Of a stretch of DNA of 64,000 nucleotides, positions 1,733 through 40,122 are shown in pieces. The stretch is from Raja brachyura. Its lineage: Eukaryota. The stretch is from contig OY740808.1 of the NCBI GenBank assembly GCA_963514005.1, positions 12,586,001-12,650,000 on the forward strand, given 5' to 3'. Position 1 is the stretch's first letter. The number at the start of each line of letters is the position of its first letter. A program made the position numbers and the translations under genes. The notes under the pieces are model-generated. The model was not told where the DNA came from, did not search any database, and saw only the letters and a list, made by a program, of their open reading frames with translations.

Positions 1733-2055
1733 TTACAGACAGCTGGACCTGGCGATGTTTCGCTGCAGCGGGCAAGCCCGCGACTCGTGTTTAACCACAC
1801 AGGAGTAAAGCTCGTGTGAGTTCCAGACTGTGACTGGCAGAGTCAGGTAACTGCTCGCACTGAACGTGCTGTCCGCCTCCTGTTGGACTGGGCTGGTTTC
1901 GACGCCATCACTTCTCGCACTGCCGTCCACAGTCCACTCAATTTCCACAACTCCCGGATTAAACCCACTCACCAAACACACAAGGGTGGCGGTTCCCTTT
2001 CCCGTCATTTCTTCCGCTGAAGGTCCAAAGACGGACACCGCGGGCGGCTGAGGTA
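1733..2055 (-). CDS. IGL: Ig lambda-type light chain copy 1, constant exon (IPQPPAVSVFGPS...ATLVCLVSGFNPG...YSCVVKHE...RSSCL*)
   Basis: Acceptor attAG at 2057-2056. C1-set motifs ATLVCLV, W and YSCxVxH, and a penultimate Cys for H-L linkage. Resembles elasmobranch type II/lambda C regions as I recall them. Confidence 0.95.
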
Positions 2056-3242
2056 CTAATCAAAAATAAAGTCACAGATTAGTAGGGCTAGCAGAACTGC
2101 TTCGGTTAAAACATCTTTGTTAAAAATACAGTTGGTATAGCATGGATTCATTCGTTCCAAGTGAGATCTCCAAAAATAACTGCTAGTTATGGCAATGGGA
2201 CAGAATATACGCAGTAGCGTAAAATATATTATTTCGGCAGTGTTTTTATTTGATCTCCAGAGTATTATTTCCATTGGCTCCAGTTACAAAAAAAAACGAG
2301 TGTTTTACCTGACAGCCAGTTGCGGGTTTTCATTGCAGTCAATGTTCCACTAAACTCGCTTCAAACTTTAGTTTTGTTTAAGTACCTTCCCTTAATTCAT
2401 CTGTTCATTTATTAAGACCAGATACCGAAATGTTACTAATGGTTGGATTTTAGCGTCAAGAATATTTTGCCGTTTTAGCCATCGATTAATTTCCAGCAAC
2501 GTTAAATTTACCGTGTTCTCGCGTTTTAAATAGTCGTTGATATGATTTACATTAATGCTGAAACGTATGTGTTTGATTTTCCTTGACCCGTCTCTTCTCT
2601 TTGAAGTAATAATTCAGCTCAGATTTCTGAAGTTGAATAGCGAATCTTATTCCTTTCGCTTAATGGCACAACAGCAAAATGCATTATAAGATGTCACACG
2701 GAACTAAACTGATTTGAAGAAGGGACCCGAACCGAAAGTCACCTATCCATGTTCACCAGAGATGCTGCCCTACCCGCTGAGTCACTCCAGAGCTTTCTGT
2801 CTTTTTTTATAAACCAGCATCTGCAGTTCCTTGCCCCTGCAAAGTTATTTCCCGTGTCCTTACGTTCGGTCCAATTCTTCTCCAGGTTTGATAATTGTTA
2901 TCCCGCCGTCCACAAAGTAATTAAGAATAATAAAACAGCTGGACATTCGATTCGTCCTTTCATTCCTGTTGTCAACTAATTTGCCAAAAAGACTCGATCG
3001 TGGCCGGGAATTAAAAAAACACCAGTTTTAAATATCTTTAATTTCAGCTATTTAGTGTAAAAAATACAAACAGTCGGCCGAGAATCAGGCCCTTTGACAG
3101 AGCTACGTCTCATAATTTGCCAAAGGAAACTCGACTTTGGTCGAACGCTGAAAATTAGCGTTAAAATGTTTTCTTTGAACCATCGATTAGCGACAGAAAA
3201 CCAATTACTTTTCACTGCAATATCATTAACCCAAAGATAGAA

Positions 3243-3408
3243 TATGCAGGAAGGAACTACAGACCCATTCATACCCTCCAGAGATGCTGCCAATCCAGCT
3301 TGTTGTGTCTATCTTCGGTTTAAACCAACCTGCAGTAACTTCCTCATAACTCTGTAATTCTCCAGAGATGATGCATGGCCCGCTGCGTCACTCCAGCTTT
3401 TTGTGTCT
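3243..3408 (+). mobile_element. Short repeat insertion in the J-C intron with a 14-bp flanking direct repeat (present in all three copies)
   Basis: acccaaagatagaa at 3229-3242 and 3409-3422 flanks two ccagagatgctgc modules. Confidence 0.7.
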
Positions 3409-3436
3409 ACCCAAAGATAGAAGGTATTTTACTTAC

Positions 3437-3781
3437 TGCCAATACCCAGCCTAGTTCCTTTGCCGTAGACGAAAGCATCGTTCCACACAGCACAATAGTA
3501 ATCCGCTGCGTCCCCCGACTGCACGTTTGATATTGTCAATGTTGCAGTGTTGCCTGACACTGATCCGGAGAAACGTCTAGAAACTCCCGAGCCTCTGGAA
3601 ATGCTGCTGCCCGAGTAATAGTAGATCAAATACCGCGGAACCGTTCCTGGAATCTGCTGGTACCAGGAAATCTCTCTGTTACCTAAACTGCCGCCAGACA
3701 GGGTACAGGGTATTTCCACGTTCTGTCCCAGAAATGTGGATTTTGAAGCCGGCTGATTTAGTGCAAATTGCGTATTTATAT
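3437..3781 (-). CDS. IGL: Ig lambda-type light chain copy 1, germline-joined VJ exon (YINTQFALNQPASKSTFLGQNVEIPC...WYQQ...DAADYYCAVWNDAFVYGKGTRLGIG)
   Basis: Acceptor ttttccAG at 3783-3782. V-set hallmarks C-W-DxAxYYC run directly into a J-like xGKGTRL. Donor GTAAGT at 3436-3431. 345 nt, open frame, no RSS. Confidence 0.95.
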
Positions 3782-3905
3782 CTGGAAAACAAACCAGAAA
3801 AAGGAGAATATTAACTAATATCAGAGAAACAGCAGATTTGTCATGGATAGAAATGTTTAATCGTACTCGAGATTAAACACCATGTCGGTTGAAGTCAATA
3901 CTCAC

Positions 3906-3954
3906 AAGCTGCGGAAAACGCTAACGCATAGACTAGAGAGATCCAGCAAGACAT
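3906..3954 (-). CDS. IGL: Ig light chain copy 1, leader exon (MSCWISLVYALAFSAA, phase-1 intron)
   Basis: ATG at 3954-3952 followed by 16 hydrophobic codons plus 1 nt, then donor GTGAGT (plus-strand actcac 3900-3905). Splices in frame to the VJ exon. Confidence 0.92.
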
Positions 3955-4210
3955 TGTAATTAATTGAGCGGAGAACGCAAGGTGAAGTGGCTTTTCAGTG
4001 TTTCTCTCCGGGTCGCTTATGAACCGCATGACAAGGCGTCGCCGCGAGTTCTTTATCTATCCATCAACAGTCAAATCAGAATGCGTGTTGCGCCAATCAG
4101 AAGTTGCCAGATTCTTCCTGTGTCAAATTATTTCCAAGGTAAATAAGGATTTGGTGTCGAATATCTCGGTACAATTTATCTCGGTACATTTGTATCTCGG
4201 TACAATTTAA
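3955..4210 (-). promoter_or_regulatory. Proximal promoter of copy 1 (paralogs about 22320-22575 and 40123-40365)
   Basis: Block conserved in all three copies. CCAAT box (plus strand 4093-4097; 22458; 40261) lies exactly 139 nt from each ATG. TATA-like TTCATAAG at 4023-4016. No exact ATTTGCAT octamer seen. Confidence 0.6.
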
Positions 4211-5392
4211 TATAGACTCAAGCACACAAGAGACTGTTTCGTTTGAAAGGAGGTGTTGAATTACTCATTTTCATTTATTCTGAATCTTTTGTTGTGCAGT
4301 TGCACGGCATGCGCCTTCAAAGTAATTAATCGAATAACCTCATCATAAGTTCATTCACTCTTGAAAAATGAAAGGATACATTACAATAGGGGCTGAAGAA
4401 TTCGTGCTCATGGTCTCACTCTACTGTACGCGATATGTACCTTCACCCTTTTATTTGCACACCCACATTTTATTTGAAACTGGTAAATATTCTGGTGAAG
4501 ATGGTGTGCAGGAAATCTTTCAAAGCGCAATGTGAAGACGCAATTGTCGGCAAAATTATTTACGAATTTGCAAATGTGGGTGTCAATGCACCGTGAAACC
4601 CGCTGTAATTCTGGAAAGCATGCTTGCTTGCAGCACACATGTAGCACGGGCAATTGACAATTGAGAAACAAAATTGAGAAACATGTTTAATCGACCAGGG
4701 AGTTGCTGGCGAGTTTTATATATTAAAGACGTCGACGTCTGCATGTGCTTGAATTGCTATGATATTAATTCTGTCCAACTTCAACTGACATATGAAATTA
4801 TATTTACATGACACCAGCGTTGCCTTATACTTGATCTGATGTACGCAGATTTTATATCTCAACCCAATTGCGCTAGTTGGCGCGACAGCGCTCCTTTCGC
4901 TTTACGGACTGTCCCTGCAGGGTAGTAACAGCAGGTGAATCAGTGCTAACGGTTATGAACAAGAAAATACTAAAAAAAAGTCTCAATTTTCAAATTGTTG
5001 CCAGTTAGACTAACGATTTCTCTGGTAATTAATCAAAGGAGTCCGGGCTGTTATGCTGATGTGCCTGGACAGTTAATACTCGCATCTCATAAAAGTCGTC
5101 AGATCGATGACATGCAACCAAGTCCAGCAAAGGCATCAATGTCTCAAACGTTCCGAAATTGTTCTACTCCTTGGTGCTTCTGAAATTCTATCTCTGTTGG
5201 AACAGGGGAATCCCTTGGCATGATTATGCACCATTTAACTGGCATTAACAACATTTTAGTTGAAATGATGACATAAGAATTGCCCATGCAGCTCAAACAG
5301 CAATCAAATAGTTGAACTACATCCAGAAGAAAATAATCCGTTCTTTGATACTTTTCTCACTCTAAATATTCATCCCCTCCAAGTAACAACGA

Positions 5393-5397
5393 CAGAA

Positions 5398-5457
<60 letters not shown>

Positions 5458-5462
5458 AGAGG
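5393..5462. repeat. (GA)n plus poly-G tract; the paralogous position is (GA)n at 44109-44158 and an assembly gap at 24359-24487
   Basis: All three positions are followed by acagtctcaaaa..ttaacattt. Confidence 0.9.
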
Positions 5463-7292
5463 AGTAGACAGGCAGATTGACAGTCTCAAAAGATTAACAT
5501 TTGGAATGAAATGTTCAATAGAACGCGGTTGTGACGTTCAAGGAGATGCGGCTGTGAGATGCTGGAATTTTCAGTAAAGCGCACAACCCGGGAGTAAATC
5601 TTATCGTAAGGACATTCCGGATCGCGATCTTTCTTTCGACTCTGGAAAATGGTCCCCACCCAAAACATAAAATATTCATGTCCTCCAAAGATGCTGCCCT
5701 ATCTGCTGAATTACTCTAGCACTGAGAATGAAGTAGACGTTTATCACATTATCAAATTAATGAAAATGAAATATTAAAGCAACATAGATATTCTCTAAAA
5801 TAAATAAGATTAGGTATTTAAAGAAGCCACATCTGAAGAATAACGGGGTTAATGACTAACAAACATTCACTTCTGTGTGGAATGTTTCCTGTAAGGGAAA
5901 CGCACTTCCAAATTGCTTGGTTGGAGCAAAACTGCATACATTGTGATGGCTTAACGAGAGGTAGCATTACCAGGGCAGCCTGGTCGAGAAGCAATCTGTT
6001 CCCGTAGGTTAACCCGGGGATTATGTAGCAGTGCAATTTCAGGTAATGACGAAAGGCCAAAAGACTGTGATCCCTAATACGTTAAATATGGGGATGTGAT
6101 GTGGATTCTTTAGTCGTTCAGGGCCACCTTCTCTGGAATTGCTGCAGTCCTTTTGGCGAAGCTACACATTCAATCCACGAGGAATACCATTCCAGAATTT
6201 ACAATGTTACTGAAATCGGCCATGGAAACCTGATTTCGGGACTTTTCTTACCCCTTCCTGTGCGTACTTTAAGGGTACAATCCAATGGTTTCGTACCCTC
6301 AAAATATCAGCCCACTGATGCTTCATCGTCTTACCTGGCTTCACTTATTTTCAGTGGGTCTAGCACAGGCACAGAAAGCACTCCTGGATATTCCTTTATC
6401 CACCACGTCCATTCCTTTCACGGGCCTGTGATCACAAATGTTATTAGAGGTATTTTGCCGAAATAGTATTTATTTGGCTGCTTTAGATCAAATTTGACGC
6501 GAATAAGCGTCATGGTTGGATATTTGGAAACGTTAATATTATTGAATATTTAATCTATCACTTGCGTTTGTACATAAGTGCTGCAGCAACTTGGCAGGCA
6601 ACGTTTGGCTAATGTATTGGAATATTTTGAAGAATTAACGTGTAATGTCCAAAGAAGGAAAACGATGCATGTACTAGAGGTCGCATGCTATCGTGAATCG
6701 AAGGCTAGCTTTCAGAAAACAGAGAGTAAGCAGAATTTGGTCTGGTTCTGATTTGTAAGGACTACCATTTTCGTGTTGTAAGTAAAGGTGTGTGCCCTCA
6801 ACCTCAGTTTCGGTTTCCTTACAATATTTTGTAATTTCATATGATCCGTTCTTTGTTGTAGCATACACAGTCATATTCCTTTATTTATACCATTGACTGT
6901 TCTGTTGATTGTGTTATTTCTGCCACAGCGAATTCGACCATCCCTTCCGTTGTTTTCCACATTAACTCACTATAGTGCACAATGTATTTATTTTCAGAGT
7001 CATGCTTATCTGAATATTGGTTAATCTTCTCTATCGTTATTTGCGCGCAAGTGTCACAGCTTGGTTATTTGGCTAAATAACAGTTGCCAATACAATGAAG
7101 GTATATGTAAGTGGTGCGGGCATATTAATATTGGTTTATTGAGGCTTAAGCTCAAGAGGCTTCTGTGAGCGTTACCTTCGGATAAAGTTTGGTCTGTCTT
7201 TTTATGTTTGCTTTGCAGCACAACCTGGTCTTGGTGTCATAGAGATGGACGCTAGTGTGCTCAGCCTATGGGATGTTGGAGCAGATGAAGAC

Positions 7293-8420
7293 GTAATATC
7301 TCCCACGTTGTACTTCGTGGTCCGGTATATGTTTCATTCCAGAATCATAACCCTTGTTGTGCCTCTGGAATGACCACATGTACACGTATTTAGGGTTGGA
7401 AACTGAGCATAAATCAAGGCTCTGTTTATTTCACGGCCATCTGGAACCAGAGTACCCTGTTATATTACGTTATTCCCACATATACATGTTGCTACGCTGG
7501 GCAAACAAAGTAGTCCTTGTGATATAACAAAGTAGTCCTTGCAATATCACAACATCCCCCTTGTCTTAAGAAATATGCTTAACAAACAAAACTCTACACA
7601 CAATTGTTTTTTATTAACACCAACATTCTTCAATAGCAATGATTATCAACAGTAACGTACAGGTTTCTTACTAACACGTCCTGGATGTGTCACGTATTCT
7701 CCATCAGCATTATGTGCGGTCGTTCCTCCTCTTTATATTTGGTCTCAGTCCTGTTGTTGTCTGGAATGACGCAGTGGGGACCAAAACCTGGTTTCTCCAG
7801 TGGAGGAACATCTCTCAAATGAGCTCGATTCCATCTTAATCTATTCTCATTTGGCGTTTCAATGATGTAAGATCTTAATTGGGGTTCGTCACAGATCGTT
7901 CTCACTTCTTGTGGTATCCAGACATGAGCAACTTGATCCAGAACCCGGATCTTCTGTCGAATGTGTAATGGTTTCAAGACCAATGTCTCTTGATCGAATT
8001 GTCAAAATGCGCCTTCATTTGCTGCGTGCGCTCTTCAAGTCGCGCAAAGTTCCTCTGCCATTGGTATGTCTTGTCCGTGTCAAGGTTTGTGAGTAGAGGT
8101 GTCTGAATCTGTCTTCCAAACATCATCTCTGCTGGTGATGGTAACTTGGAATCAATCTGTGCGGTACCCAAGTTGAGTAAAGCTGCTGCTACACTCTGTT
8201 CCGTTGTCAAGGACTTCTTGATGACGGATTTCACCGTTTGTACCATTCTCTCAACAAGTCCATTCGACTGCGAGTACCTAGGTGAGGACGTCATATGGGT
8301 GATTCCCCATTGCTCGCACATGAATTTGAACGGTTCTCCAACAAATTGTGGGCCATTGTCGGAGATGATTTCCGTCGGTGCTCCTAGGAGGCCAAATGAT
8401 GCAGTCACCATATTAGTGTC
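7293..8420 (-). mobile_element. Gypsy-type LTR retrotransposon fragment (integrase C-terminus, PPT, partial 3' LTR; unit 1 only)
   Basis: IISDNGPQF...SSPRYSQSNGLVERMVQTVK...SPAEMMFGR integrase motifs. Purine tract AAGGGGGA is followed by TGTT at 7554. Absent from the paralogous positions near 26250 and 45930. Confidence 0.85.
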
Positions 8421-9200
8421 TGAAAGAGGTGTGTCCAGGTGCAGCTCCTGAAAGATTAGTGATCTGCAGTTGCAATTGGATGACCTCATGTTCGTCCAGA
8501 GAGTGAGCAAGTCATAGTTAGGCATCATAGTGAGGTGCTCACGCCTGTGGTGCGGACAAAGAATAGATGGGTAACCACCAGCAAAGGCAGTAGGCAGAAG
8601 GTTCAGGAATCCCCTGTCGGCTTTCCCCTGCAAAACAGCTATGTTCTTTTGCAACTGTTGAAGGGGTAAGATTGATGCCTATAAATAATCTCATCATCTG
8701 TCATTTGTTTTGTAATCAAATGCCCAAGATATTTTACCTTATTACAGACACTAAGATTATTGTCGGACAATTTAAAATCAGGACATTTTAGACATTTAAC
8801 CTCTTTGGTTCTTCAGATCATAACAGCACTCTTACAAGCATTATATTTAATATCATGTTCCACACCATACAAAAAACATATAGTAAGGAGCTGCAGGAGA
8901 CCAGCGCTAGATGGGCTAAAGACCACATGGTCATCTGCAAACATAATATGGTTCACTAAAATATTACCAATGATGCACCCAGTATTACAGGCTTTCAATT
9001 GCTTGGACAGATCATCCATATAAATATTAAAACGGACTGGGGACAAAATTCCCCCTTGTCTAACACCATTGCTAACTCCAAAAGGGGGTGAGACCCTATT
9101 GCCCCATTTTATTTGCATAGTCTGGTGGGCATACCAGGAAACCATAATTCCCACAATGTATATAGGCACCCCTCTTTGACTCAATTTAACAAACAGCTTT

Positions 9201-11643
9201 ATAGACAATAGACAATAGACAATAGGTGCAGGAGTAGGCCATCTGGCCCTTCGAGCAAGCACCGCCATTCAATGTGATCATGGCTGATCATCCCCAATCG
9301 GTACCCCGTACCTGCCCTCTCCCCATAATCCCCTGACTCGGCTATTTTTAACAGCCCTATCTAATTCTCTCTTGAAAGCATCGAGAACCTGCCTCTACCG
9401 CTCTCTGAGGCAGAGAAATCCACAGACTCACCACTCTCTGTTAGAAAAAGTGTTTCCTCATCTGCGTTCTAAATGCCTTACTCCTTATTCGGGCACATGA
9501 TTCCTGCCTCTAGCATGTCCAGGCCCTTAAGCAATCTTATATTTTTCAATCAGATCCCCTCTCATCCTTCTAAACTCCAGAGTGTATAACCCCAGCTGCT
9601 CTATTCTCTCAGCATATGACAGTCCTGCCATCTCGGGAATTAACCTTGTGAACCTATGCTGCACTCCCTCAATAGCAAGACTGTCATTCCTCAAATTAGG
9701 GGACTAAAACGGCATACAATACTCCAGGTGTGGTCTCACTTGGGCTCCGTACAACTGCAGAAGGTCCTCTTTGCTCCTATATTCGATTCCTCTTGTTATA
9801 AAGGCCAACATATCATTCGCTTTCTTAACTGCCTGCTGTACCTGCATGCTTACTTTCATAGACTGATGTACAAGGACCACCAGATCCCGTTGTACTTCCC
9901 CTTTTCCCAACCTGATACCATTTAGATAGTAATCTGCCTTCCTGTTTTTGCGACCAAAGTGGATAATCTCACATTTATCCGCATTAAACTTCATCTGCCA
10001 TGCATCTGCCTACTTCCCCAACCTGTCCCAGTCACCCTGCATTCACATAGCATCCTCCTCACAGTTCACACTGCCACCCAGCTTTGTGTCATCTGCAAAT
10101 TTGCTAATGTTACTTTGAATCCCTTCATGCAAATCATTGATGTATACTGTAAATAGCTGCGGTCCCAGCACCGAGCCTTGTGGTATCCCACTAGTCACTC
10201 CCTGCCATGCTGAAAGGGACCCGTTAATCCCTACTCTGTGTTTCCTGTCTGCCAACCACTTCTCTATCCATGTCAGCACTCTACCATGTGCCCCAATTTT
10301 GCCCACTAATCTCCCATGTGGGACCTTATCAAATGGTTTCTGAAAGTCCAGGTACACTACATCCACTGGCTCTCCCATGTCCATTTTCCTAGTTAAATCT
10401 TCAAAACATTCCAGAAGACTAGTCAAGCATGATTTCCCCTTCGTAAATCCATGCTGACTCGGACCGATCCTGTTACTGCTATCCAAATGTGCGGCTATCT
10501 CATCTTTTATAATTGACACCAGCATCTTCCCCACCACCGATGTCAGGCTAACTGGTCTATAATTCCCCGTTTTCTCTCTCCCGCCTTTCTTAAAAAGTGG
10601 GATAACTTTAGCTACCCTCCAATCCACAGAAACTGATCCTGAGTGTATAGAACTTTGGAAAATTATCACCAATGCATTCACGATTTCTAGAGCCACTTCC
10701 TTAAGTACCCTGGGATGCAGACCATCAGGCCCTTGGGATATATCAGCCTTCAGTCCCATCAGTGTATCCAACACCATTTCCTGCATAATGTAGATTTCCT
10801 TCAGTTCCTCAGTCACCCCAGATCCTCTGGCCACTACTATATCAGGAAGATTGTTTGTGTCCTCCTTAGTGAAGACAGATCCAATGTACCTGTCCAACTC
10901 ATCTGCCATTTCTTTGTTCCCCATAATAAATTCAGCTTTTTTGGTCCAAGGGTCCAACTTTGGTCTTAACTCATTTTTTCCTCTTCACATACCTAAAGAA
11001 GCTTTTACTATCCTGCTTTATATTCTTGGCTTGCTTACCTTCGTACCTCATCTTTTCTCCCCGTCTTGTATTTTTGGTTATCTTCTGTTGTTCTTTAAAC
11101 ATTACCCAATACTCTTGCCTCCCGCACATCTTTGCTACATTGTACTTCTTCGCTTTAATTTTTATACTGTCCTGCCATCCCTTGTCAGCCATGGTTTTCC
11201 CTCTCTACCCATGGCATCTTTCTTCCTCCTAGGAATGAACTGATCCTGCACCTTCTGTATTATTCCTAGAAACATCTGCCATTTTTGTTCCACTGTCATC
11301 CCTGCTAGTGTATCTTTCCAGTCAACTTTGGCCATAGTCCCCTTTATTCAAGTGCACCACTGACACCTCCCATCTACTCTTCTCGCTCTCCAACTGTAGA
11401 TTAAGCCTGACCATGTTATGGTCACTGCCTCCTAATGGCTCATTAACCTCGAGGTCCTTTATCAAATATGGTTCATTACATAACACAAACTCCAGAATAG
11501 TCTTCTCCCTGGTAGGCTCCAATACAAGCTGTTCAAAGTATCCATCACGAAGGCACTCTACAAACTCCCTTTCTTGGGGTCCAGTACCAACCTGATTTTC
11601 CCAGTCTTACCTGCATGTTGAAATCTGCCATAACAACAACAAG
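9201..11643 (-). mobile_element. CR1 LINE, 5'-truncated (unit 1 only)
   Basis: RT motifs NYRPVSLTS, QHGF, VYLDFQK, PQGSVLGP, FADD. (CTATTGT)n tail near 9201-9222. AGCTTT duplicated at 9195-9200 and 11644-11649. Confidence 0.9.
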
Positions 11644-12654
11644 AGCTTTCTATGATTAAGACGATGAAAGGCTTTGGAAGCATCAATAAAGTACATAAGA
11701 ATTTAAGGGTTTTTGCCTATATTTGTTCACAATCACTTTTAGGGCATATATAAACAAGTGAGTGCCATGTCTAGCTTTAAAACCAAACTGGTTATCTGTG
11801 GAGTTAACAAACTCATTTACTCTATTCAGCAGAATTATTTCTAGGACGTTTGGTAATATGCTGGCTAAAGCTACGGGCCTGTAATTATTTAGGCTGCCTA
11901 CTTTACCATATTTGTCCTTAATGACCAGCACTAGCAGAACAGACAACACTGAGTCTGGTAACAAGCCATGAATCATAAAGCCAGTGAAGCAAATAGCAAG
12001 GAGATGAGCTATCGCATACTTAAGATGTTCAGCAGAAATATGATCCAAGCCACTTGCTTTGTTGTTGGACAGCTTGTTCATGGCATGATACACCTCATGT
12101 GACATAATCACCACTGAGTCATTATTCTCAATATTGTCCACCCTATACAAATCACTTTGGACACAGTTGAATAAAGTGTTATAATGTTGTCGCCATAACT
12201 CTGCGATATTAGCTGATCCGGACATTCCATCTATTGTGCATTGTAGAGATGTTTTGCAACTGTTAAGAGCTCTCACATCTTTCCAAAAATCAGTATTGTT
12301 GTTACTCAGCATCCTCGTAGCCATGGAATCTGCCCTCATAGCATGCTCATCTTTACAGATGATGCGATCAGCATACATCTCTCTTGCAATAGTGAGCTTC
12401 TTGTACTCAAATACATACGTAGGAAACTGGATGAGGTCCTATAGAGTGCATATAAAGAGTTGGGAAAAAAGTTAGAAAAAGGGATGGGGTCCTGTGGAGT
12501 GAATATAGGGAGTTCAGCAAAATATAACGAAGAGCAATTAGTGTCTCTGGCGAGTTAGGTGAAAGGTTAAAATGATCACCTGCAGGGTGGTAATCTCCAG
12601 ATTAGTACAGTTGCCATGTGTTAGTGAGGGTAGCAATTGGAGGATAGTACAGAT

Positions 12655-15347: not shown

Positions 15348-15725
15348 ATAGACAATAGACAATAGGTGCAGGAGTAGGCCACACGGCCCTTCAAGCCAGC
15401 ACCGCCATTCAACGTGATCATGGCTGATCATCCACAATCAGTACCCTGTTCCTGCCTTCTCCCCATATCCCCTGCCGCCGCTATCTCCAAGAGCCTGATC
15501 TAGCAATCTCTTGAAAGTTTCCAGAGAACCGGCCTCCACCGCCCTCTGAGGCAGGTAATTCCACAGACTCACATCTCTCTGTGTGGAAAAGTGTTTCCTC
15601 ATCTCCGTTCTAAGTAGCTTACCCCTTGTTCTTAAACTGCGGCCCCTGGTTCTGGACTCCCCCAACATCGGGAACATGTTTCCTGCCTCTAGCATGTCCA
15701 AACCCTAATAATCTTAAATGTTTCA
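15348..15725 (-). mobile_element. CR1 3' fragment shared across units (also about 31435-31815; remnant at 51822-52025)
   Basis: FPMLGESRTRG...GYGEKAGTGY and a (CTATTGT)n tail. Confidence 0.85.
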
Positions 15726-20092: not shown

Positions 20093-20415
20093 TTACTGAC
20101 AACCGGACCTGGCTATGTTTCCATGCACCGGGCTTGCCCGCGACTCGTGTTTAACCACACAGGAATAAAGCTCGTGTGAGTTCCAGACTGTGAGTGGCAG
20201 AGTCAGGTAACTGCTCGCACTGAACGTGTTGTCCGCCTCTTGTTGGATCCGGCTGGTTTCAACGCCATCACTTCTCGCACTGCCGTCCACAGTCCAGTCG
20301 ATGTCCACAGCACCCGGATTAAACCCGTTCACCAAACACACAAGGGTGGCGGTTCCCTTTCCCGTCATTTCTTGTGCTGAAGGTCCAAGGACGGACACCG
20401 CGGGTGGCTGAGGTT
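20093..20415 (-). CDS. IGL: Ig lambda-type light chain copy 2, constant exon (KPQPPAVSVLGPS...RSGCQ*)
   Basis: Acceptor aatAG at 20417-20416. 323 nt, C1-set motifs, stop TAA at 20095-20093. Confidence 0.95.
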
Positions 20416-21805: not shown

Positions 21806-22150
21806 TGCCAATACCCAGCCTCGTTCCTTTGCCGAAAATGAAAGCATCTTTCCACACAGCACAGTAGTAATCCGCTGCGTCCCCCGACTGCACATTCGAT
21901 ATTGTCAATGTTGCAGTGTTGCCTGACACTGATCCGGAGAAACGTTCAGAAACTCCCGAGCCTCTGTAAATGCTGCTACCCGACCAATAGTAGAACAAAT
22001 ACCGCGGAACCGTTCCTGGAATCTGCTGGTACCAGGAAACGTCGCTACTACCTAAACTGCCGCCAGACAGGGTACAGGTTATTTCCACGTTTTGTCCCAG
22101 AGATGTGGATTTTGAAGACGGCTGATTCATTGCAAATTGCGCATTTATAT
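21806..22150 (-). CDS. IGL: Ig lambda-type light chain copy 2, germline-joined VJ exon (...YYCAVWKDAFIFGKGTRLGIG)
   Basis: Acceptor AG at 22152-22151, donor GTAAGT at 21805-21800. 345 nt open frame with canonical FGKG. Confidence 0.95.
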
Positions 22151-22270: not shown

Positions 22271-22319
22271 AAGCTGCGGAAAACGCTAACGCATAGACCA
22301 GAGAGATCCAGCAAGACAT
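22271..22319 (-). CDS. IGL: Ig light chain copy 2, leader exon
   Basis: ATG at 22319-22317, 49 nt, donor GTGAGT at 22270-22265. Same protein sequence as the copy 1 leader. Confidence 0.92.
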
Positions 22320-24358
22320 TGTAATTAATTGAGCGGAGAACGCCAGGTGAAGTGGCTTCTCAGTGTTTCTCTCCGGGTCGCTTATGAACCGTTTGACAAG
22401 TCGTCACCGCGAGTTCCTTATCTATCCATCAACAGTCAAATCAGAATGCTTGTTGCGCCAATCAGAAGTTGCCAGATTCTTCCTGCGTCAAATTATTTCC
22501 AAGGTAAATAACGATTTGGTGTCGAGTCTCTCGGTACAATTTATCTCGGTACATTTATATCTCGGTACAATTTGATATAGACTCAAGCACATGAGACTTT
22601 GTTTCGTTTGAAAGGAGGTTGAATTCTTCCTTTTCATTTATTCTGAATCTTTTGCTGTGCAGTTGCACGGCATGCGCCTTCAAATAAATTAATCCAATAA
22701 CCTCATCATAATTCCTGGCGACTGTTCATTCACTCTTGAAAAATGAATGGATACATTCCAACAGTGGCTGAAGAATCCGATCGCATGGTCTCGCACTACT
22801 GTGCGTCATGCACCTTCACCCTTTTGGTTGCACACCCACATTTTATTTGAAACTGGTAAATATTTTGGTGAAGATCGTGTGGAGGTAATCGTTCAAAGCG
22901 CAATGTGAAGAAGCAATTGTCTGAAAAAATATTTACGAATTTGAAAATGTGGGTGTCAATGCACCGTCAAAACCGCTGTAATCCTGGAATGCATGCTTGC
23001 TAGCAGTACACATGTTCACTGGCTTAGCACGGGTAATTGACTTAATTGAGAAAACAATTGAGAAACATGTTTAATCGACCAAGGAGTTGCTGGCGAGTTT
23101 TATATATTAAAGACGTCGATGTCCGCACGTGCTTGCTTTGCTATGATATTAATTCTGTCCAACTTCATCTGATATATGAAATTATATTTACATGCAACCA
23201 GCGTTGCCTTATACTTGATCTAATGTACGCAGATTTTATATCGCAACCCAATCGCGCTGGTTGTCGCGGCAGCGCTCCTTTCACTTTGTGGATTATGCCT
23301 GCAGGGTATTAACACCAGGCGAATCAGTGCTAACGACTATGAACAAGAAAATACAGTTAAAAACACGTTTACATTTTCAAAATGTTGACATTTGGACTAA
23401 CGATTTCGCTGGTAATTGATCAAAGGAGACCGGGCTGTTCTGCTGATGTGCCTGGACAGTTAATACTCGCATCTCATAAAAGTCCTCAGAGCGATGACAT
23501 GCAAACAGGTCAAGCAAAGGCATCAATGTCTCAAATATTGTTTCCGAAATTGTTCTACTCCTCGGTACTTTGGAAATGCTATCTCTGTTGGAACAGCGGA
23601 ATCCTTCCTATGATACCGTGTTATGATTATGCATAATTTAACGGGCATTAACAATATTTTAGTTGAAATGATGACATAAGAATATGTTTCAGTGCGCAAC
23701 CATGACACCCGTACCTAGCCTATTACCAATGTGCGTTGCCTTTGCTAAGTTATCCTCTGATCTCTCCACATGAACGCTTTACAGAAACTGGATACATTGA
23801 ACAATTCCCCATGCAGGTAAAACAAAAGCACGTAGTTCAACTACATCCAGCAGAAAGTAATCCGCTCTTTGATACTTTTCTCACTCTAAATATTCATCCC
23901 CTGCCAAGTAACAATATATTGCCACGACCCTCTTGGCAATACGCAAAATACATTACAATTATGTCCAGGACACACGGACAACACCTCCGTGCCTAATCAG
24001 GATAAGAGGAAAGGGTGTGCATAGGAGCACCTCTCTTGCTAGACAAGCCACAGCCGAAGTTGAGTACGAAATACATTGCTATGCTTTGCGATTGTTGGGC
24101 CCAATTCTTGGAAATCCCTGTCTAAAGCAGGATTTGGGTCCTATCGCCAGAATACTTCAGTGGTTCAAGAAGCTTAACAGTGCATACTAATGCTCACCTT
24201 GCTGTCAAATTTGATTAAAATTTGGCGTATTGATGGAACTTTTGGTTTGGGAAACAAAAGCAGATGACAGGGTAGTAGAGCTGTGCTACTCGTCTTGTTG
24301 GAGTTTTGCAGAATATTATTTCTGCATGATCCATAGTGTAACTCTACGCGCGAGCATT

Positions 24359-24487
24359 NNNNNNNNNNNNNNNNNNNNNNNNNNNNNNNNNNNNNNNNNN
24401 NNNNNNNNNNNNNNNNNNNNNNNNNNNNNNNNNNNNNNNNNNNNNNNNNNNNNNNNNNNNNNNNNNNNNNNNNNNNNNNNNNNNNNN
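24359..24487. other. Assembly gap (129 N)
   Basis: Run of N characters. Confidence 1.
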
Positions 24488-27400: not shown

Positions 27401-27503
27401 TATAAAGATTAAAAAGGACTGGGGACAAAATTCCCCCTTGTCTAACACCATTGGCAACCCCAAAATGGAGTGAGACCCTATTGCCCCATTTTATTTGCAT
27501 AAT

Positions 27504-31500: not shown

Positions 31501-33321
31501 CATTCAATGTGATCATGGCTGATCATCCACAATCAGTACCCCGTTCCTGCCTTCTCCCCATGTCCCTTGACTCCGCTATCTTCAATCCTATCTAGCAATC
31601 TCTTGAAAGTTTCCAGAGAACCGGCCTCCACCGCCCTCTGGGGCAGAGAATGCCACAGATTAACAACTCTCTGTGTGAAACAGTGTTTCCCATCACCGTT
31701 CTAAATAGCTTATACCTTGTTCTTAAATTATGGCCCCTGGTTCTGGACTCCCCCAACATCGGGTACATGTTTCGTGCCTCTGGCGCGTCCAACCCCTTAA
31801 TAATTTAATGTGGTTCAATACAAAGTGAAGATTAAATTGGCGTTGGCCAGGCAGACAGGGAGAGCCCAACCACTTCGGATGAAAAGCTTTGGTCGGACAA
31901 ATCCATGGCACTTTGCAGGTCAAATAAGATTTCGGAGTTTCTGAAGAAAATGTTGCATTTTGTCGAATAGCCGTGAAAAGCTGTGTGAATGTTATCTTTA
32001 AAATATGAGGAATGGGTAATGGGGAATGGGCAAAGATTTTCTACAGTTAGCGAATTTCAATATATTGAGTTGGGCAATTATTACTGGTTGAATAAAACAC
32101 AAAGTGATCGAATATCTCGACGGGTCACGCAGCATCTGGCCTAAACGTCGCCTATCGATTTATTTCACAATTGCAACCTGAACCGCCGAGTATTCCAGCA
32201 GCTTGTGAATCCAGCAGATGTGGTTCTCTTTGTCTTAAATTGGTACTCCTTATCTACCTTGAGTAGCCGAAACGCTGACTTAACAGGGCGACTCAGAGGA
32301 ATGAGAGAAATTAGGATTGTTGTACGCAATTATAGGCAATTCATGATGAGCTACTAATCTAGCCGATGTTTCTGGTGGTTGTTATCGAGGACGTTTATGA
32401 CCGGTGCCTTTAAGCACTAAAAACACGAATGATCATTTATAGAGGCGGAACGAGAGCATTGTTCGTGCACAAATGGCAGTGATAGCAATGTAGATAACTG
32501 GAGCACTTGCTGCTATTCAGAAGGACTTGAAATTGCAGGCTGTCAGTTCAATTTGAAGACAAGATGAGCGAAAGCAGTTTGCAGTATTGAGATACAGAGG
32601 TGCACCAACTGATCTTCGCCTGCTAAAGAGAAAATCAGATTTGGTTCATAATTCATTAATTAGATAGGAGTGAAACAATGCAGAGCCAAGTCAATATCAT
32701 TTATGCACATGTGGACAGGAATTTGCGTCTTGGGGGTTTGGTGTCAAGGGCAGCACCTAACTACGGAATAGAAGGGCTCAGTGTTACTTTCAGAGATCAC
32801 AAAATAATGAGATATTAGAAAGGGAGGTAATTGCTGTGATATTATTGATATTATCGGAGATGTCCAAAAGGAATTAAGCGAAGGCCTTCCATGCAGTTGA
32901 ACATTCTAGGAGGAGCCTTGTCGAGAGGCAAACTCCATTGAGAACCAATAGTTCCGAGTCACGGTCATGGTCACAAAATTGATTTCTGCGTTTGTTTGTT
33001 TGTGGTTTATTATTATTGTCACGTGTCTCCCTTTTGCCAAATTCAAACCGGGAACATAAGAAGAAGGAATAAGTAAGTTGTTCAAGGCTTCACCGGGAGT
33101 CCTGGGTTGAACGCCATTGAAACTCCAGTGTCACGCCCCTTTCCCAACTCCCTTGAATCGCTTAAAGTTCTTTCGATATCAATATGTTTGGGTATCGGCA
33201 AGCATATGGAGTAAAGTATCCAAAACATTATAATCGCATCCAGCCAAGAATACTTTACTTTTCAGTCCTGATTACCCAACCCATAGTCTGAAGATGAAAT
33301 CAGGCAGAAAGATAAAATCGA

Positions 33322-34659
33322 TCCCACAAAACTGAATTAAAAAAAAACCTATAATGAAAATCCTATAATATATAGTGGTATACGAATTTGGAAACAATTA
33401 AAAAAAACTTTAAAATTGGATAATTTATCTCTCTTTCTCCCCATTGTAAATAATCCTTGATTTAAAACTTCTGTGTTGGATAAAGGTTTTGTACAATGGA
33501 AAAATTCAGGAATTAAAAAGGTGGGACATCTTCATAGAAAATATATTTGTCTTTCATTTCAGGAGTTACAACAGAATTATGAACTACATTCAAATTTTTT
33601 TTAGATACTTACAACTTAGACATTATGTTAAATCACATACACAAGAATACAGAATATAGAGCCAGAGACTCTTGATGAATGTTTGAATAAACATCCTAAC
33701 ACAGATAAATTAATATCTCACATTTATAATACTCTTTTAGATAGTGAGGTACCGTCGACGGAATTACATAGACAAGCATGGGAAAATGAATTAGCTCAAC
33801 CTATAATGAAAGGTACTTGGGATGAAAGTTGACAACATATACATCAATGCTCGTTAAATGCCAAACACTCTTTAATGCAATTTAAAGTGCTACATCGACT
33901 GCATTACTCTGAAACAAAATTAAATAGAATGTTTCCAAATATCTCCCCTATCTGTGACAAATGTCAATATTCAGCGGCTAATTTAAGTCATACTTTTATA
34001 AATTGTATAACAATTAAACATTTCTGGACGGATATTTTAAAAAATATTTCTGAAGTTGTAAATATCCAATTGGACCCTGACCCCAAACTAATAATATTAG
34101 GAATATCAGAACAAAGCCTGAAACTCACAACAAGCCAAATACATTTCATTGATTATAGTATAACAATCGGAAAAAAATTAATATAAATTTTTTTGGAAAA
34201 CCCGATGACCCACACTTTTAAAATGTGGATTATGGAGATGTCGGAGACCTTACATTTGGAAACAATGAGACTTGTCTTCATTGACAAACCAGAATTAGTT
34301 GCTAGAATATGGTCTCCTTGCATAGATTATTTGAAAGGGTAAATTGGTGCAGCACAGGGGCCTGACTGAAAATTGAATCCAGGATTAGAGGAATAGTTAC
34401 GTTTTATAACATAACTCCTAACCTGTATTATTGATAATTTATTCTACATTTTTCATTCTTTTTCTTTCTTTATTATCTTTCTATCTATAAATAAAAATAA
34501 ACAATTATAAGCAGTGTTAATATGTAATTGATAAATGAGGACCTGAGCTATTTTGACAGCTGGGACCCCAGCTACTAACAACATGTAATTGATAAACAAA
34601 GTGTGTTTTGGTTCCTATTACGATACGTATATGCTTCTAATAAAAAAATATTATTATAA
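33322..34659 (+). mobile_element. L1/Tx1-clade LINE 3' fragment with 16-bp TSD
   Basis: QFKVLHRLHY...CDKC...LSHTFINC cysteine-rich C-terminus, then AATAAA and an A-rich tail. TSD agaaa(g/t)ataaaatcga at 33306-33321 and 34660-34675. Confidence 0.85.
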
Positions 34660-36171
34660 AGAAATATAAAATCGAGTTAGAAATCACTTAAGCGGTCAAT
34701 TAGAAGAGCCAAAAGGGGGCATGAAACGGGTTTGTCGAGCTAGATTAAAGAAGATCGCAAGGCTTTTTATACCAAATGAAATGCAAGAGGGTAACCAAAA
34801 AGATGGTAACTCGAGGAGAAAGGGAGGAATTTGTGCTTTGAATCTAGGGATATAGGCGAGGTATTAAATTAGTACGTTGTATGTCTCTTCACCAAAGAGA
34901 AGCACAAGGAGGAGAGTGAGATCAATGTGGCGAATATTCTTATGCAAGGGCACGATGTGATTAAGAAGTGGGTGTTGGGTGTCTTGAGGGGCAGCGTGCA
35001 TGAATGGACAGATTATTGAGACACACAAAAGACAAGTTTGCAGTAGCCATGACAACGATCTCTGAGCCTTCTCTAGCAGTTAATAAGTTTACAGATGACA
35101 GGTAGATTGTTTGGGTTGCGGACAGTGAGGAATGTTGGCAATGTATACAACAGGATAGACACTAAGTATAAAAATGAGAGATGAAATGATAGATGCAAAT
35201 TAACCAGAGCATTTAAGTGCTGGGGGAGGGGTCGATTGTAAGGGGAAATATACCCCCTTGCTGCCTGACCCGCTGAGTTACTCCAGCATTTTGTGTCTAC
35301 TTTCCATTTATAACAACAGTATTGATGTACAGAGGAATTTTGGGAACCAAGTCTATGTGTCCCTCAGTGGCAACACCACTCTATAGAGTGGTGAAAAGGC
35401 ATATTTTATGTTTTCCTTCATTGGGCATGGCATTCATGATAAGGGCAGGCGTCATGATGCTCCAGTTAAGACTTTTGTTAGGCTGCATTTCGTGTACTGT
35501 CATCATTTCCTGTCGCCCCAATATTAGATGGAAGTGGAGGCCTTGGAAAAGGCGCAGAGGATATTTACCTGAATTAGGGGTATTAACTACGAGCAGAGGT
35601 TGGACAAAATTGGGTTGTTTTCTCTGTAACCGTTGACGACGAGGGGAGGCCTCCTGGAAATATATAACATTATGAGAGTCATAGATAGGGCAGAGAATCA
35701 TAACCATTTCCCCCCATAATGGAAATATCAAGGACTAGATGACATCGCTTTAAGGTTATAGACGCATGGACATTTTATATACAGAGGTTGGTGAGGACCC
35801 GGAAGGCGTTGGCGAGCGTGGTGGTGGCGGCATAAGCAACAGTGGCATTTGTAAGAATTCTGGATAGGGATGACGTGCACACAGATAAAATTTGGTTTTG
35901 GCATCGTGTCGGCAAAGGCATGGAGCGCCGAAAGGCTTGTTCGTGTGCTGTGCTGTACTATGTTCTGCGCTTTGTGGATACTCATTAATCAGGAGAAATA
36001 ACGTCTGCACCTTTCCTGCCAAGACCACTAAGAGTTTTACATATTACAGTGGCTGATATTTTATATATTGTAGGGCGGCACAGTGGCGCACCTGGTAGAG
36101 CAGCTGCCTCGACAGCGCCAGAGACCAGGGCTCGATCCTGAGCTCGGGTGCTGTCTGTGAGGTGTTTACAC

Positions 36172-36961
36172 CTTCAATTCCCTACCGTTTACCATGTAGG
36201 ACGTACATGGTAAACGGTAGGGAATTGAAGAATACAGTTGAACAGAGGGATCTGGGAATAACCGTGCATAGTTCCTTGAAGGTGGAATCTCATACAGATA
36301 GGGTGGTAAAGAAAGCTTTTGGTATGCTAGCCTTTATAAATCAGAGCATTGAGTATAGAAGCTGGGATGTAATGTTAAAATTGTACAAGGCGTTGGTGAG
36401 ACCAAATCTGGAGTATGGTGTACAATTTTGGTCGCCCAATTATAGGAAGGATGTCAACAAAATAGAGAGGGTACAGAGGAGATTTACTAGAATGTTGCCT
36501 GGGTTTCAACAGCTAAGTTACAGAGATAGGTTGAATAAGTTAGGTCTTTATTCTCTGGAGCGCAGAAGGTTAAGGGGGGACTTGATAGAGGTCTTTAAAA
36601 TGATGAGGGGGATAGACAGAGTTAATGTGGACACGCTTTTCCCTTTGAGAATAGGGAAGATTCAAACAAGAGGACATGACTTTAGAATTAAGGGACAGAG
36701 GTTTAGGGGTAACATGAGGGGGAACTTCTTTACTCAGAGAGTGGTAGCGGTGTGGAATGAGCTTCCAGTGGAACTGGTGGCGGCAGGTTCGTTGGTATCA
36801 TTTAAAAATAAATTGGATAGGCATATGGATGAGAAGGGTATGGAGGGTTATGATATGAGTGCAGGCAGGTGGGACTAAGGGAAAAAAAGTTGTTCGGCAC
36901 GGACTTGAAGGGCCGAGATGGCCTGTTTCCGTGCTATAATTGTTATATGGTTATATGGTTA
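36172..36961 (+). mobile_element. Young CR1 3' fragment inserted in an HE1 SINE, with a fold-back 5' end
   Basis: Open RT C-terminus and (TTATATGG)n tail. TACAC duplicated at 36167-36171 and 36962-36966. Confidence 0.92.
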
Positions 36962-37877
36962 TACACATTCTCCCCGTGATGTCGTGTGTTGTCTCCCACA
37001 TCCCAAAGATTGCGGGTTCATAGGTTAATTGGCCTCTGTAAAATTGCCCCCCCCCCCACTGTGTAGGGAGTGGATGAGAAGGTAGGCTGCACTTATCAGT
37101 CGTTTCTCGCAGCGTGCACTTATCCAACTAATCAGCTCAGCAGGAACCAACCCAGAACTTCAGTAGCTCTATTAGGCGAGAACAATAAAACTACATATGA
37201 TACTCCATGTGTGCTAGCCCCCTATATAAAGGCAGAAAGACCATATTACTCTCACTCCCCACCAGCCCCGCCCATTTAATTCACAGATGAAATAGCTTGG
37301 AATTGCTAAGTGAATAGTATCAGCAAGGTCACATATAACGATTACTGTCTGTCCTCGAATGCGTTTCTACATGAGCGCGCCATTTTGTTCGTGTGTGTGC
37401 GTGTGCCTACATGAACCAATTTATAATCACACCAGTTTATAAAATAACGTTCGGCGCCATTTATCACCGGTTCTTCCATAAGGTAAAATAATGAAGGTTG
37501 ATTAAATATGTTTGATTTTCTCTGATCAGAAATAAAAACCCAACAAATGTATTGCTCTTAAGATTGAATTATTGATTTTAGTCGAGAATTGTATTTGAAA
37601 ATGTTAGTAATGTGGGTATGCAAAACAAACCTGAATGTAATCTTTAGACCACTGTCTTTTAATGAATATTTGGTAATGCATTTAACAGATTGAATAACAT
37701 TGGAGTTTCAATTCACAACGAGTTGCTTCGATGGAATGACGTTTGCAAACAGCGAGACAAAGGACAATTTTAACGCAAATGCTAGTCGATAACAGAGAAT
37801 ATTTTTATATCAATTTTTGACAAATGAAAGACGGAGCACAAATATTTTTCAGCTTGATTAGTTGGAATCTAGAAGTT

Positions 37878-38200
37878 TTACTGACAGCCGGACCTGGCGA
37901 TGTTTCCATGCACCGGGCTTGCCAGCGACTCGTGTTTAACCACACAGGAGTAAAGCTCGTGTGAGTTCCAGACTGTGACTGGCAGAGTCAGGTAACTGCT
38001 CGCACTGAACATGTTGTCCGCCTCCTGTTGGATCCGGCTGGTTTCAACGCCATCACTTCTCGCACTGCCGTCCACAGTCCAGTCGATGTCTACAGCACCC
38101 GGATTAAACCCGTTCACCAAACACACAAGGGTGGCGGTTCCCTTTCCCGTCATTTCTTGTGCTGAAGGTCCAAGGACGGACACCGCGGGCGGCTGAGGTT
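37878..38200 (-). CDS. IGL: Ig lambda-type light chain copy 3, constant exon
   Basis: Acceptor AG at 38202-38201. 323 nt, intact C1-set domain, ends RSGCQ*. Confidence 0.95.
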
Positions 38201-39602
38201 CTATTTAAAATAAAGTCACGGATTAGTAGGGCTAGCAGACCTAATTTGGTTAAAACATTATTAGTTGTTAAAAATACAGTTGGTAAAGCATGGATTAATT
38301 CGTTTCAAGTGAGATCCCCTCATAATAACTGCTATTTATGGCAATGGGACAGAATATGGGGCAGCAGCGTAAAATATATTATTTCGGAAGTGTTTTTAAT
38401 TGATCTCCAGAGTATTATGCCCATTGGCTTCAGCTACAATATTAAAGAGTGTTTTTTTACACGACAGCCAGTTGCGGGATTTCATTGCAGCGAAAGTTCC
38501 ACTAAACGCGCTTAAAACTTTAGTTTTCTATAAATACCTTCCCTTAATTAATCTGTTCATTTATTAAGGCCAGATACCGAAATATTACTAATGGTTGGAT
38601 TTTAACGATAAGAATCTTTTGTCGTTTTAGCCATCGATGAACAGACTAGATTTGCAGCTACGTTAAATTGACCGTTTTCTCGCATTTTAAATAGTCGTTG
38701 ATATGATTAATGCTGACACGTATATGTTTGTTTTTTTCTCGACCCGTCTCTTCTCTTTGAAGTAATAATTCTGCTCAGATTTCTGAAGTTTGAATAGCAA
38801 ATCTTACTCCTTTCGCTTAATGGCACAACAGCAAAATGCGTTATAAGATGTCACACGGAACTAAACTGATTTGAAGATGGGACCCATACCCAAACCTACC
38901 TATCCACGTTCACCAGAGATGCTGCCCTACCCGCTGAGTCACTCCAGAGCTTTGTGTCTTTTTTTGTAAACCTGCATCTGCAGTTCCTTGTCCCTCTAAA
39001 GTTATTTCCCGTTCCCTTACGTTCCGTCTAATTCTTATCCAGGTTTGATAAATGTTAGCCCGCTGTCCGCAAAGTAATTAAGAATAATAAAACAGCTGGA
39101 CAGCCGTATCGTCCTTTCATTGCTGTTGTCAACTAATTTGCCAAAAAAGACTCGATCGTGGCCGGGAATTTAAAAAAATATCAGCTCTAAATACCTTTTA
39201 TTTTAGTTATTTAGTGTAAAAATTACAAAGAGCCGGCCTAACATCTGGGCCCTTTGATAGAGCTACGTCTAATAATTTGCCAAAGGAAACTCGACTTTGG
39301 TCGAATGCTGAACATATTAGCGTTAAAAGCTTTTTCTTTGAACCATCGATTAGCGACAGAAAAGCAATTGCTGTTCATTGCAATATCATTAACCCAAAGC
39401 TAGAATATGCAGGAAGGAACTGCAGACTCATTCATTCCGTCCAGAGATACCGCCTATCCAGCTTATTGTGTCTCTCTTCGTTTTAAACCAACATCTGCAG
39501 TTCCTTCCTCCAACCCTTTCCTTCTCTGCAGAGATGCTGCCTGTCTCGCTGCGTTACGCCAGCTTTTTGTTTCTACCCAAAGATAGAAAGTATTTTACTT
39601 AC

Positions 39603-39947
39603 TGCCAATACCCAGCCTCGTTCCTTTGCCGAGGATGAAAGCATCTTTCCACACAGCACAGTAGTAATCCGCTGCGTCCCCCGACTGCACGTTCGATATT
39701 GTCAATGTTGCAGTGTTGCCTGACACTGATCCGGAGAAACGTTCAGAAACTCCCGAGCCTCTGTTAATGCTGCTACCCGAGTAATAGTAGAACAAATACC
39801 GCGGAACCGTATCTGGAATCTGCTGGTACCAGGAAACGACGCTACTACCTAAACTGCCGCCAGACAGCGTACAGGTTATTTCCACGTTTTGTCCCAGAGA
39901 TGTGGATTTTGAAGACGGCTGATTCATTGCAATTTGCGCATTTATAT
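39603..39947 (-). CDS. IGL: Ig lambda-type light chain copy 3, germline-joined VJ exon (...YYCAVWKDAFILGKGTRLGIG)
   Basis: Acceptor AG at 39949-39948, donor GTAAGT at 39602-39597. 345 nt open frame; J motif reads LGKG. Confidence 0.95.
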
Positions 39948-40073
39948 CTGAAAAACAAAATAGAAAAAACGTAGAATATTAACTAATATCAGTGAAACAG
40001 AAGAAATATCACGGATAGAAAGGTTTAATCGTACTCGAGGTTAAATATCATTTCGGTTGAAGTAAATACTCAC

Positions 40074-40122
40074 AAGCTGCGGAAAACGCTAACGCATAGA
40101 CTAGAGAGATCCAGCAAGACAT
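40074..40122 (-). CDS. IGL: Ig light chain copy 3, leader exon
   Basis: ATG at 40122-40120, 49 nt, donor GTGAGT at 40073-40068. Confidence 0.92.

Follow-up and report, generated by a model that had tools for sequence, protein, structure and literature searches.

When examining a 64,000-nt stretch of the genome of the skate Raja brachyura (C30:12,586,001-12,650,000, where C30 is the contig; hereinafter, the window), we observed three immunoglobulin lambda light-chain genes (copies 1-3), in each of which the variable (V) and joining (J) segments are fused in frame in the germline, without a recombination signal sequence (RSS), as well as the end of a fourth gene (copy 4; Table 1). Each of the three genes consists of a leader exon, a joined VJ exon and an exon for the constant (C) domain. 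The identity of the exon lengths (49, 345 and 323 nt, respectively) and of the length of the third complementarity-determining region (CDR3; 8 residues) among these same-strand genes, pointed out in the original prediction, is read directly from the DNA. The splice sites of all three genes conform to the GT-AG rule, the terminal stop is the sole stop codon of every spliced frame, and Pfam detects the V-set and C1-set domains in all six exons scanned. Cys23, Trp41 and Cys104 are retained in all three genes, whereas Phe118 of the J motif, FGXG, is found in one of the three. Accordingly, the description of these genes as intact holds for their open frames but not for the canonical J motif, which is altered in copies 1 and 3, or for the C domain of copy 1, with its additional cysteine.

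The identification of these genes as lambda (type II) genes is borne out by several comparisons. A search with the VJ exon of copy 2 retrieved 33 proteins (E-values up to 1e-25), all of which are elasmobranch light chains; 32 of these are named lambda-like, and the single kappa-like one nests among the array genes described below. The closest matches came from Amblyraja (91%) and Rhinoraja (89%). As for the C exon, it shares 66% identity with a sandbar shark lambda chain, compared to 41-46% with the C exons of the sigma-like and sigma-2-like genes of the same genome. In a quick tree of V domains, from which the CDR3 was left out, the window genes group with lambda with a Shimodaira-Hasegawa-type approximate likelihood ratio (SH-aLRT) support of 92, against three outgroup sequences that represent sigma and sigma-2 and include no kappa. 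A search of PDB yielded matches to mammalian or engineered antibodies exclusively. Judging from these comparisons, the window genes are germline-joined elasmobranch clusters of the lambda (type II/NS3) sort, which was already known, and we regard this identification, along with the history of the genes outlined below, as nearly certain.

A nineteen-gene array and its genomic setting

The array is much larger than the three genes originally noticed, which proved to be only the part of it that falls within the window. Reading 494 kb around the window and a further 170 kb to the left, we found that copies 1-3 are genes M3-M5 of 19 minus-strand clusters (M1-M19) located at 12.54-12.93 Mb of C30, with 14.0-32.7 kb between neighbors. 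All 19 are joined, with 8 residues separating Cys104 from position 118 in each; the frames of 17 are open, with a frameshift in M10 and a stop in M11, and three orphan C pseudogenes are scattered amid the array. A second array, P1-P7, consists of seven joined clusters on the plus strand (C30:11876426-11993111), 553 kb from the M array, spaced by 15-22 kb and with CDR3 lengths of 11, 11, 11, 9, 6, 9 and 9. Every one of the 26 lambda VJ exons is followed, at a distance of 1.0-4.3 kb, by a C exon of its own. In the VJ tree, the M and P genes are separated with full support (100/100), whereas the C tree contains no such split; the M genes belong to a V family different from that of the P genes, with a longer CDR2 and, among the homologs of the family, a CDR3 of 8-9 residues. 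Of the 553 kb between the arrays, 480 kb were partly read, about 376 kb of these being covered by genome searches alone (150 candidates scored in each).

Germline joining of these genes, as originally predicted, is supported by the in-frame VJ exons, all 26 of which are joined, and by the RSS scans. An exact 12-spacer RSS pattern had no match in the 64-kb window, and relaxed patterns with 12- or 23-nt spacers gave zero matches in the window versus 0.73 in shuffled sequences (30 shuffles), whereas the exact pattern did detect the 12-RSS at two split light-chain loci on contig C32 of the same genome. A somatic origin of the V-J join is unlikely because all 26 genes are joined, as are annotated genes in other species.

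Copies 1-3 are paralogs, not haplotypes. Their pairwise identity is 91.3-96.8% in the VJ exons (91-97% in coding sequence generally), 89.8-95.3% in the J-C introns and 86.5-90.5% in the upstream flanks, and the longest identical run is 209 nt. The original prediction had named mis-assembly of haplotypes as the outcome that would undo it; the 86-97% identity and the insertions private to each unit rule this out. It could be argued that haplotypes or collapsed repeats were placed in tandem, given that one stretch of Ns (24359-24487) lies inside unit 2. However, none of the genes includes these Ns, and on either side of them unit 2 aligns collinearly with units 1 and 3; together with the degree of divergence, the private insertions, the short identical runs and the presence of several distinct paralogs in other skates, this makes an artefact of assembly barely conceivable.

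Table 1. Annotated features of the window, with positions counted from its first nucleotide
Feature	Positions	Strand	Basis or remark
Copy 1 (M3), leader exon, 49 nt	3906..3954	-	splice/frame reading
Copy 1, germline-joined VJ exon, 345 nt; CDR3 AVWNDAFV; J-Phe118 replaced by Tyr	3437..3781	-	Pfam V-set, 3e-17
Copy 1, C exon, 323 nt including stop; one extra Cys	1733..2055	-	Pfam C1-set, 1e-25
Copy 2 (M4), leader exon, 49 nt	22271..22319	-	splice/frame reading
Copy 2, germline-joined VJ exon, 345 nt; CDR3 AVWKDAFI; canonical FGKG	21806..22150	-	Pfam scan; loose ends in putative RNA runs of a relative at both splice points
Copy 2, C exon, 323 nt	20093..20415	-	Pfam scan; 66% identity to sandbar shark lambda chain
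Copy 3 (M5), leader exon, 49 nt	40074..40122	-	splice/frame reading
Copy 3, germline-joined VJ exon, 345 nt; CDR3 AVWKDAFI; J-Phe118 replaced by Leu	39603..39947	-	Pfam scan
Copy 3, C exon, 323 nt	37878..38200	-	Pfam scan
Copy 4 (M6), C exon, 3' part; remaining gene past window end	63771..64000	-	
Copy 1 promoter: inverted CCAAT box and octamer-homologous slot without octamer	4053..4098	-	
Copy 2 promoter: inverted CCAAT box and octamer slot without octamer	22418..22463	-	
Copy 3 promoter: inverted CCAAT box and octamer slot without octamer	40221..40266	-	
Unit 1 private block with reverse-transcriptase fragment	9491..11640	-	Pfam RVT_1; insertion of a long interspersed nuclear element (LINE) after duplication probable
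Unit 3 private block with reverse-transcriptase fragment	41989..44102	-	Pfam RVT_1; LINE insertion after duplication probable
Gene-less relic of a further unit, 3' flank alone; ends ~260 nt before expected C stop; LINE-like fragment joined at 55628	53513..55628	.	

Beyond C30, searches of the genome with C domains (the best 150 of 284 and the best 150 of 232 candidates) brought the number of light-chain clusters found to 39, of which 37 are pre-joined: the 26 lambda clusters and 11 sigma-2-like ones, nine of these at 1.5-2.4 Mb of C29 (one with a damaged V) and two at 2.2-2.4 Mb of C47. The other two, split sigma-like clusters at 20.06 and 20.09 Mb of C32, are the sole rearranging light-chain loci among those found. 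The sigma-like and sigma-2-like labels follow what we take to be the diagnostic features of these families. No kappa-like C exon was detected among the same candidates, with no kappa query used. At the split clusters, the V-side 12-RSS is near consensus; on the J side, there is a heptamer with a weak nonamer and no RSS above the scan threshold, and a third, degenerate C lies close by.

The human lambda locus at 22q11 is linked to BCR, and in the skate a BCR oligomerisation domain is encoded on C30, 3.9 Mb from the array. A search for Yippee, also for synteny, produced one match, on another contig, and thus no further support, and none of the open reading frames in the flanks was recognised as a synteny marker. 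Beside the plus-strand array, at 12.00 Mb of C30, lies an open frame of 202 residues that contains a signal-like stretch and has the appearance of a leucine-rich-repeat N-terminus. Elsewhere in the genome, an array of single-exon VJ-type domains, presumably NCR3/NKp30-like, occupies 88.2-89.2 Mb of C8, where the stretches read contain no C exon, and a heavy-chain V-D-J exon, germline-joined in frame, lies upstream of a C exon at 41.95 Mb of C24.

Age of the join and growth of the array

The original prediction traced the three genes to one ancestral V-J join. Their common descent from such a join stands, but the join does not appear to be the event behind this array; rather, it seems ancient and family-wide. 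We compiled 123 homologous proteins (33 from the VJ search and the best 120 of 159 from a second search, the two sets overlapping) and assigned each to a V family by best score. Among the 47 homologs of the window V family, the CDR3 consists of 8 residues in 28 and of 9 in 17, with two unparsed; among the 76 homologs of the other family, the lengths are 5 (7 proteins), 6 (1), 9 (29), 11 (23), 12 (3) and 13 (1), with 12 unparsed. In 4 of the 109 parsed homologs, the Phe118 position is occupied by Leu or Ile. The 8-residue class includes proteins from Pristiophorus (sawshark), Scyliorhinus (catshark) and Heptranchias (sevengill shark), which group with M8 (97/85), while M3-M6 comprise a young clade that includes one Amblyraja protein (99/97). 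Because 8-residue joined relatives occur in sharks, the V-J junction is likely to be older than the shark-ray split, and the duplications younger; PMC2193156 dates the batoid divergence to 200 Myr or more. Stingray proteins with a 9-residue CDR3 sit among the 8-residue ones in the tree, and this position favors later indels over separate joins in their case. Taken to all lambda clusters of the genome, the comparison of junctions gives a CDR3 of 8 residues in every M gene but of 6, 9 or 11 in the P genes. On this phylogenetic evidence, the single ancestral join is a property of the V family, not of the M array. A recent local germline joining event was considered and is ruled out by the tree placement and the shark 8-residue relatives.

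Tandem duplication of a large unit, also part of the original prediction, is evident from the collinear flanks of the three copies. The distances between the ATG codons, 18,365 nt for copies 1-2 and 17,803 nt for copies 2-3, agree with the proposed repeat of about 18 kb, but a fixed unit of this size is ruled out by the variable spacing and by the structure of the units, each of which combines a collinear core of 12.6-13.8 kb with 2.8-5.0 kb of private blocks. Identity across the array drops blockwise (M3-M7, M11-M15 and M16-M19), as expected from repeated local duplication, and unequal crossover probably built the array. The relic at 53513-55628 resembles the flank of copy 1 (90-92%) more than that of copy 4 (86%) and is likely to be what remains of a unit after the loss of its gene.

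Copies 2 and 3 are 95.3% identical in the J-C intron but 90.5% identical upstream (Fisher p 8e-10); gene conversion between them is likely, judging from this difference, although part of the excess may reflect constraint. Near position -110 of copy 2, the informative sites switch, such that 13 of 18 upstream sites group copies 1 and 2. A single unequal-crossover breakpoint in the copy 2 promoter, which would account for the switch, was not borne out: further upstream, copy 2 stays nearest to copy 3. The C exons of copies 1-3 evolve under purifying selection, with a ratio of nonsynonymous to synonymous differences per site (pN/pS) of 0.44 and a confidence interval (CI) of pN-pS below 0; over five groups of genes, the C-exon ratio is 0.41-0.48, with purifying selection wherever the interval was computed. 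In the CDRs, pN is higher than framework pN, but no significant excess of pN over pS, as expected under positive selection, was detected: all intervals span zero, and the power is low.

Several mobile or repetitive elements are interspersed with the units. A young LINE fragment (36176-36961), private to unit 2, is 99% identical to one in the M2 unit; a block private to unit 3 contains two 48-bp minisatellites (46953-47257 and 47616-48009, with 6.5 and 8.4 copies); and an integrase-like (rve) fragment under the Pfam cut-off (7974-8678), a relic of a long terminal repeat element, lies partly in a block private to unit 1.

Promoters, transcripts and the choice of one chain

The M and P genes differ in their promoters. 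The immunoglobulin octamer, ATTTGCAT, the canonical place of which is about 110-130 nt upstream of the ATG and for which the background expectation is about 0.001 per 30-nt slot, is exact in all seven plus-strand genes (at -117 to -130) but in only one of the 19 M genes (M8, at -110). M1, M9 and M10 have one mismatch, and in the remaining 15 the octamer is gone; no exact octamer was found within 3 kb upstream of copies 1-3. In M10, the one-mismatch octamer has been severed from the gene by a LINE fragment; this 3' fragment of about 480 nt (C30:12733987-12734470) separates the ATG of the pseudogene from its TATA-like box. Mapped onto the tree, the pattern amounts to two losses, in M2-M7 and in M11-M19, with moderate support (83/89) for the placement of M1. 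A contig of another organism spans the copy 2 promoter with 3 differences in 184 nt, so the loss is common to a relative. In copies 1-3 and M13-M19, the decayed octamer slot (4053-4067, 22418-22432 and 40221-40235 in the window) is followed by the GATA-type motif AGATAA, perhaps by chance. Any straightforward connection of octamer loss with joining is argued against by the P genes, which are joined and have the octamer, and by octamer-less sigma-2-like and shark heavy-chain (IgH) genes: no exact octamer occurs within 1 kb of V in any of the 10 sigma-2-like genes checked, and PMC2435157 describes shark IgH genes as also devoid of an upstream octamer, which is a precedent for octamer-less elasmobranch immunoglobulin promoters. 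The octamer is not among the features that define the lambda isotype.

Evidence of transcription comes from two sequencing runs of another organism, both from one study and guessed to be RNA, which cover the exons at about 90-92% but not the introns, except for two repeat-rich stretches. Loose ends in these runs start exactly at 22150 and at 21806-21807, the splice points of the copy 2 VJ exon. Inspected by eye as reverse complements, the loose ends include an M3-M6-type leader end and C start, an M11-M19-type junction and C start, and a plus-strand-type junction. By this reading, splicing in a relative takes place at the predicted points, and genes of both octamer-less clades are transcribed there, which does not show the same for copies 1-3 themselves.

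How one light chain per cell is attained with pre-joined genes has been an open question since the skate work of 1995-2004. The original prediction, that any such choice would have to be transcriptional or epigenetic, overreaches; selection on heavy-light pairing is an alternative (PMC2435157). We propose that transcription of each copy would start at its own promoter, that the transcript would be spliced, leader to VJ to C, without the recombination-activating gene (RAG) recombinase, that diversity would stem from the differences between paralogs and from somatic hypermutation, and that the light chain would pair via its C-terminal cysteine. Every promoter would fire rarely and by chance, such that a cell may carry mRNA of more than one copy, and the fit to the heavy chain of the cell would select the light chain that gets to the surface. 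Iacoangeli is said to have reported, in 2017, lambda mRNA in nurse shark cells positive for surface kappa. For shark IgH, limited, probabilistic activation with limiting factors and a pairing preference has been proposed (PMC2435157). Leaky promoter choice combined with heavy-chain pairing is, to our mind, somewhat better than an even bet; the overall interpretation, that is, germline-joined lambda clusters in a 19-gene tandem array plus leaky choice, we hold to be fairly probable.

A strict choice of one gene among neighbors, at the transcriptional or epigenetic level, perhaps through competition for a shared enhancer, would resemble the choice of olfactory receptors, an idea that PMC2435157 credits to the work of Eason et al. 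(2004) on clearnose skate, so that the model is on record for skates. Because 37 of the 39 light-chain clusters found are pre-joined, RAG feedback cannot serve most of them, and the disappearance of the octamer from 15 of the 19 array promoters could render activation rare. However, no element that could mediate a choice is apparent in the sequence; the P1-P7 genes are equally pre-joined and as close to each other, yet have kept the octamer; and the same source mentions that each cell in the skate study had one to three heavy-chain junctions and doubts a mechanistic link to olfactory receptors. Hence leaky activation with heavy-chain fit is favored, and strict choice appears rather unlikely. 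The more specific version, under which the two parallel losses of the octamer (M2-M7 and M11-M19, 15 of 19 genes) were adaptive and created weak, enhancer-competing promoters for a RAG-free, olfactory-receptor-like choice of a single gene, strikes us as improbable. Conceivably, the sub-clade in the window is instead a weakly expressed, decaying branch of a birth-and-death process, with working lambda chains coming mostly from octamer-bearing genes. The absence of the octamer from all three promoters, the change of J-Phe118 in two of the three copies, the extra cysteine of copy 1, the deleted fourth unit, the two broken genes among the 19 and the three orphan C pseudogenes all fit such decay. 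Nevertheless, it is even less probable, considering the 17 open frames out of 19, the purifying selection on C in every group with a computed interval, the intact Amblyraja ortholog and the spliced forms of both octamer-less clades in a relative, although the promoters of that relative were not seen.

Several observations weigh against the interpretation that we prefer, that is, working genes with leaky choice. None of the runs recorded as RNA contains the window stretch, and none of the RNA comes from this species. The octamer-less promoters and the J-Phe118 change in two of the three copies fit decay equally well, and the framework pN/pS among copies 1-3 is 0.68, with a CI spanning 0. As regards gene conversion, the introns of the other two pairs also exceed their flanks in identity (90.9 vs 88.6%, p 0.011; 89.8 vs 86.5%, p 0.0005). 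Finally, the proposed exclusion step is based on work on the nurse shark.

With these 26 pre-joined lambda genes mapped, the old question becomes testable: the genes can be told apart, fall into two V families and differ in whether they have the octamer; only two of the 39 light-chain clusters found can rearrange; and the contrast between the M and P promoters provides a built-in comparison.

Comparison with known light-chain systems

The genes described here are ordinary for the pre-joined lambda kind of elasmobranchs, an arrangement long known in sharks and rays. The literature searched contains no mapped skate lambda array and no octamer loss, but key subscription papers and supplements, which were outside its coverage, may already describe the second V family or its promoters; one source calls the genomic distribution of miniclusters 'not well known' (PMC12227049), and an isotype table lists kappa of the little skate as 'not determined' (PMC5985310). 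Nurse shark NS3, sandbar shark lambda and skate type II genes are organized alike, with one V, J and C per cluster, germline V-J fusion and no RSS (PMC4279169, PMC5192425 and PMC2193156), and the first two of these sources state that V and J are joined in all lambda genes of every cartilaginous species studied. By contrast, the named lambda chains of the sandbar shark and Squalus score best with the V family of P1-P7, whereas the window genes represent the second of the two lambda V families; there are 26 clusters here compared to six in the nurse shark (PMC5192425); and the window genes have no promoter octamer. The closest counterparts are the 'immunoglobulin lambda-1 light chain-like' proteins of Amblyraja radiata (P0002), Rhinoraja longicauda (P0001) and Leucoraja erinacea (P0010), with 79-91% V identity, mostly 238 residues and an 8-residue CDR3; the genes of these three skates are automatic annotations, and P0002 falls within the clade of the window genes.

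The little skate type I (sigma-2) genes, although of a different isotype, likewise form a wholly pre-joined multi-cluster family and pose the same puzzle of exclusion. According to PMC2192082, there are at least 89 such clusters, which are expressed and possibly somatically mutated, with an excess of replacements; the lambda CDRs here show no significant excess. The likely counterparts in R. brachyura are the C29 and C47 clusters, with 41-42% C identity to lambda C, and the 11 clusters found are well below the number in the little skate. Finally, the IgH miniloci of the nurse shark are similar to the lambda genes of R. brachyura in that many autonomous clusters face the problem of one receptor per cell, but those miniloci undergo rearrangement and are separated from one another by at least 120 kb (PMC2435157), whereas the clusters described here are separated by 14-33 kb and do not rearrange.

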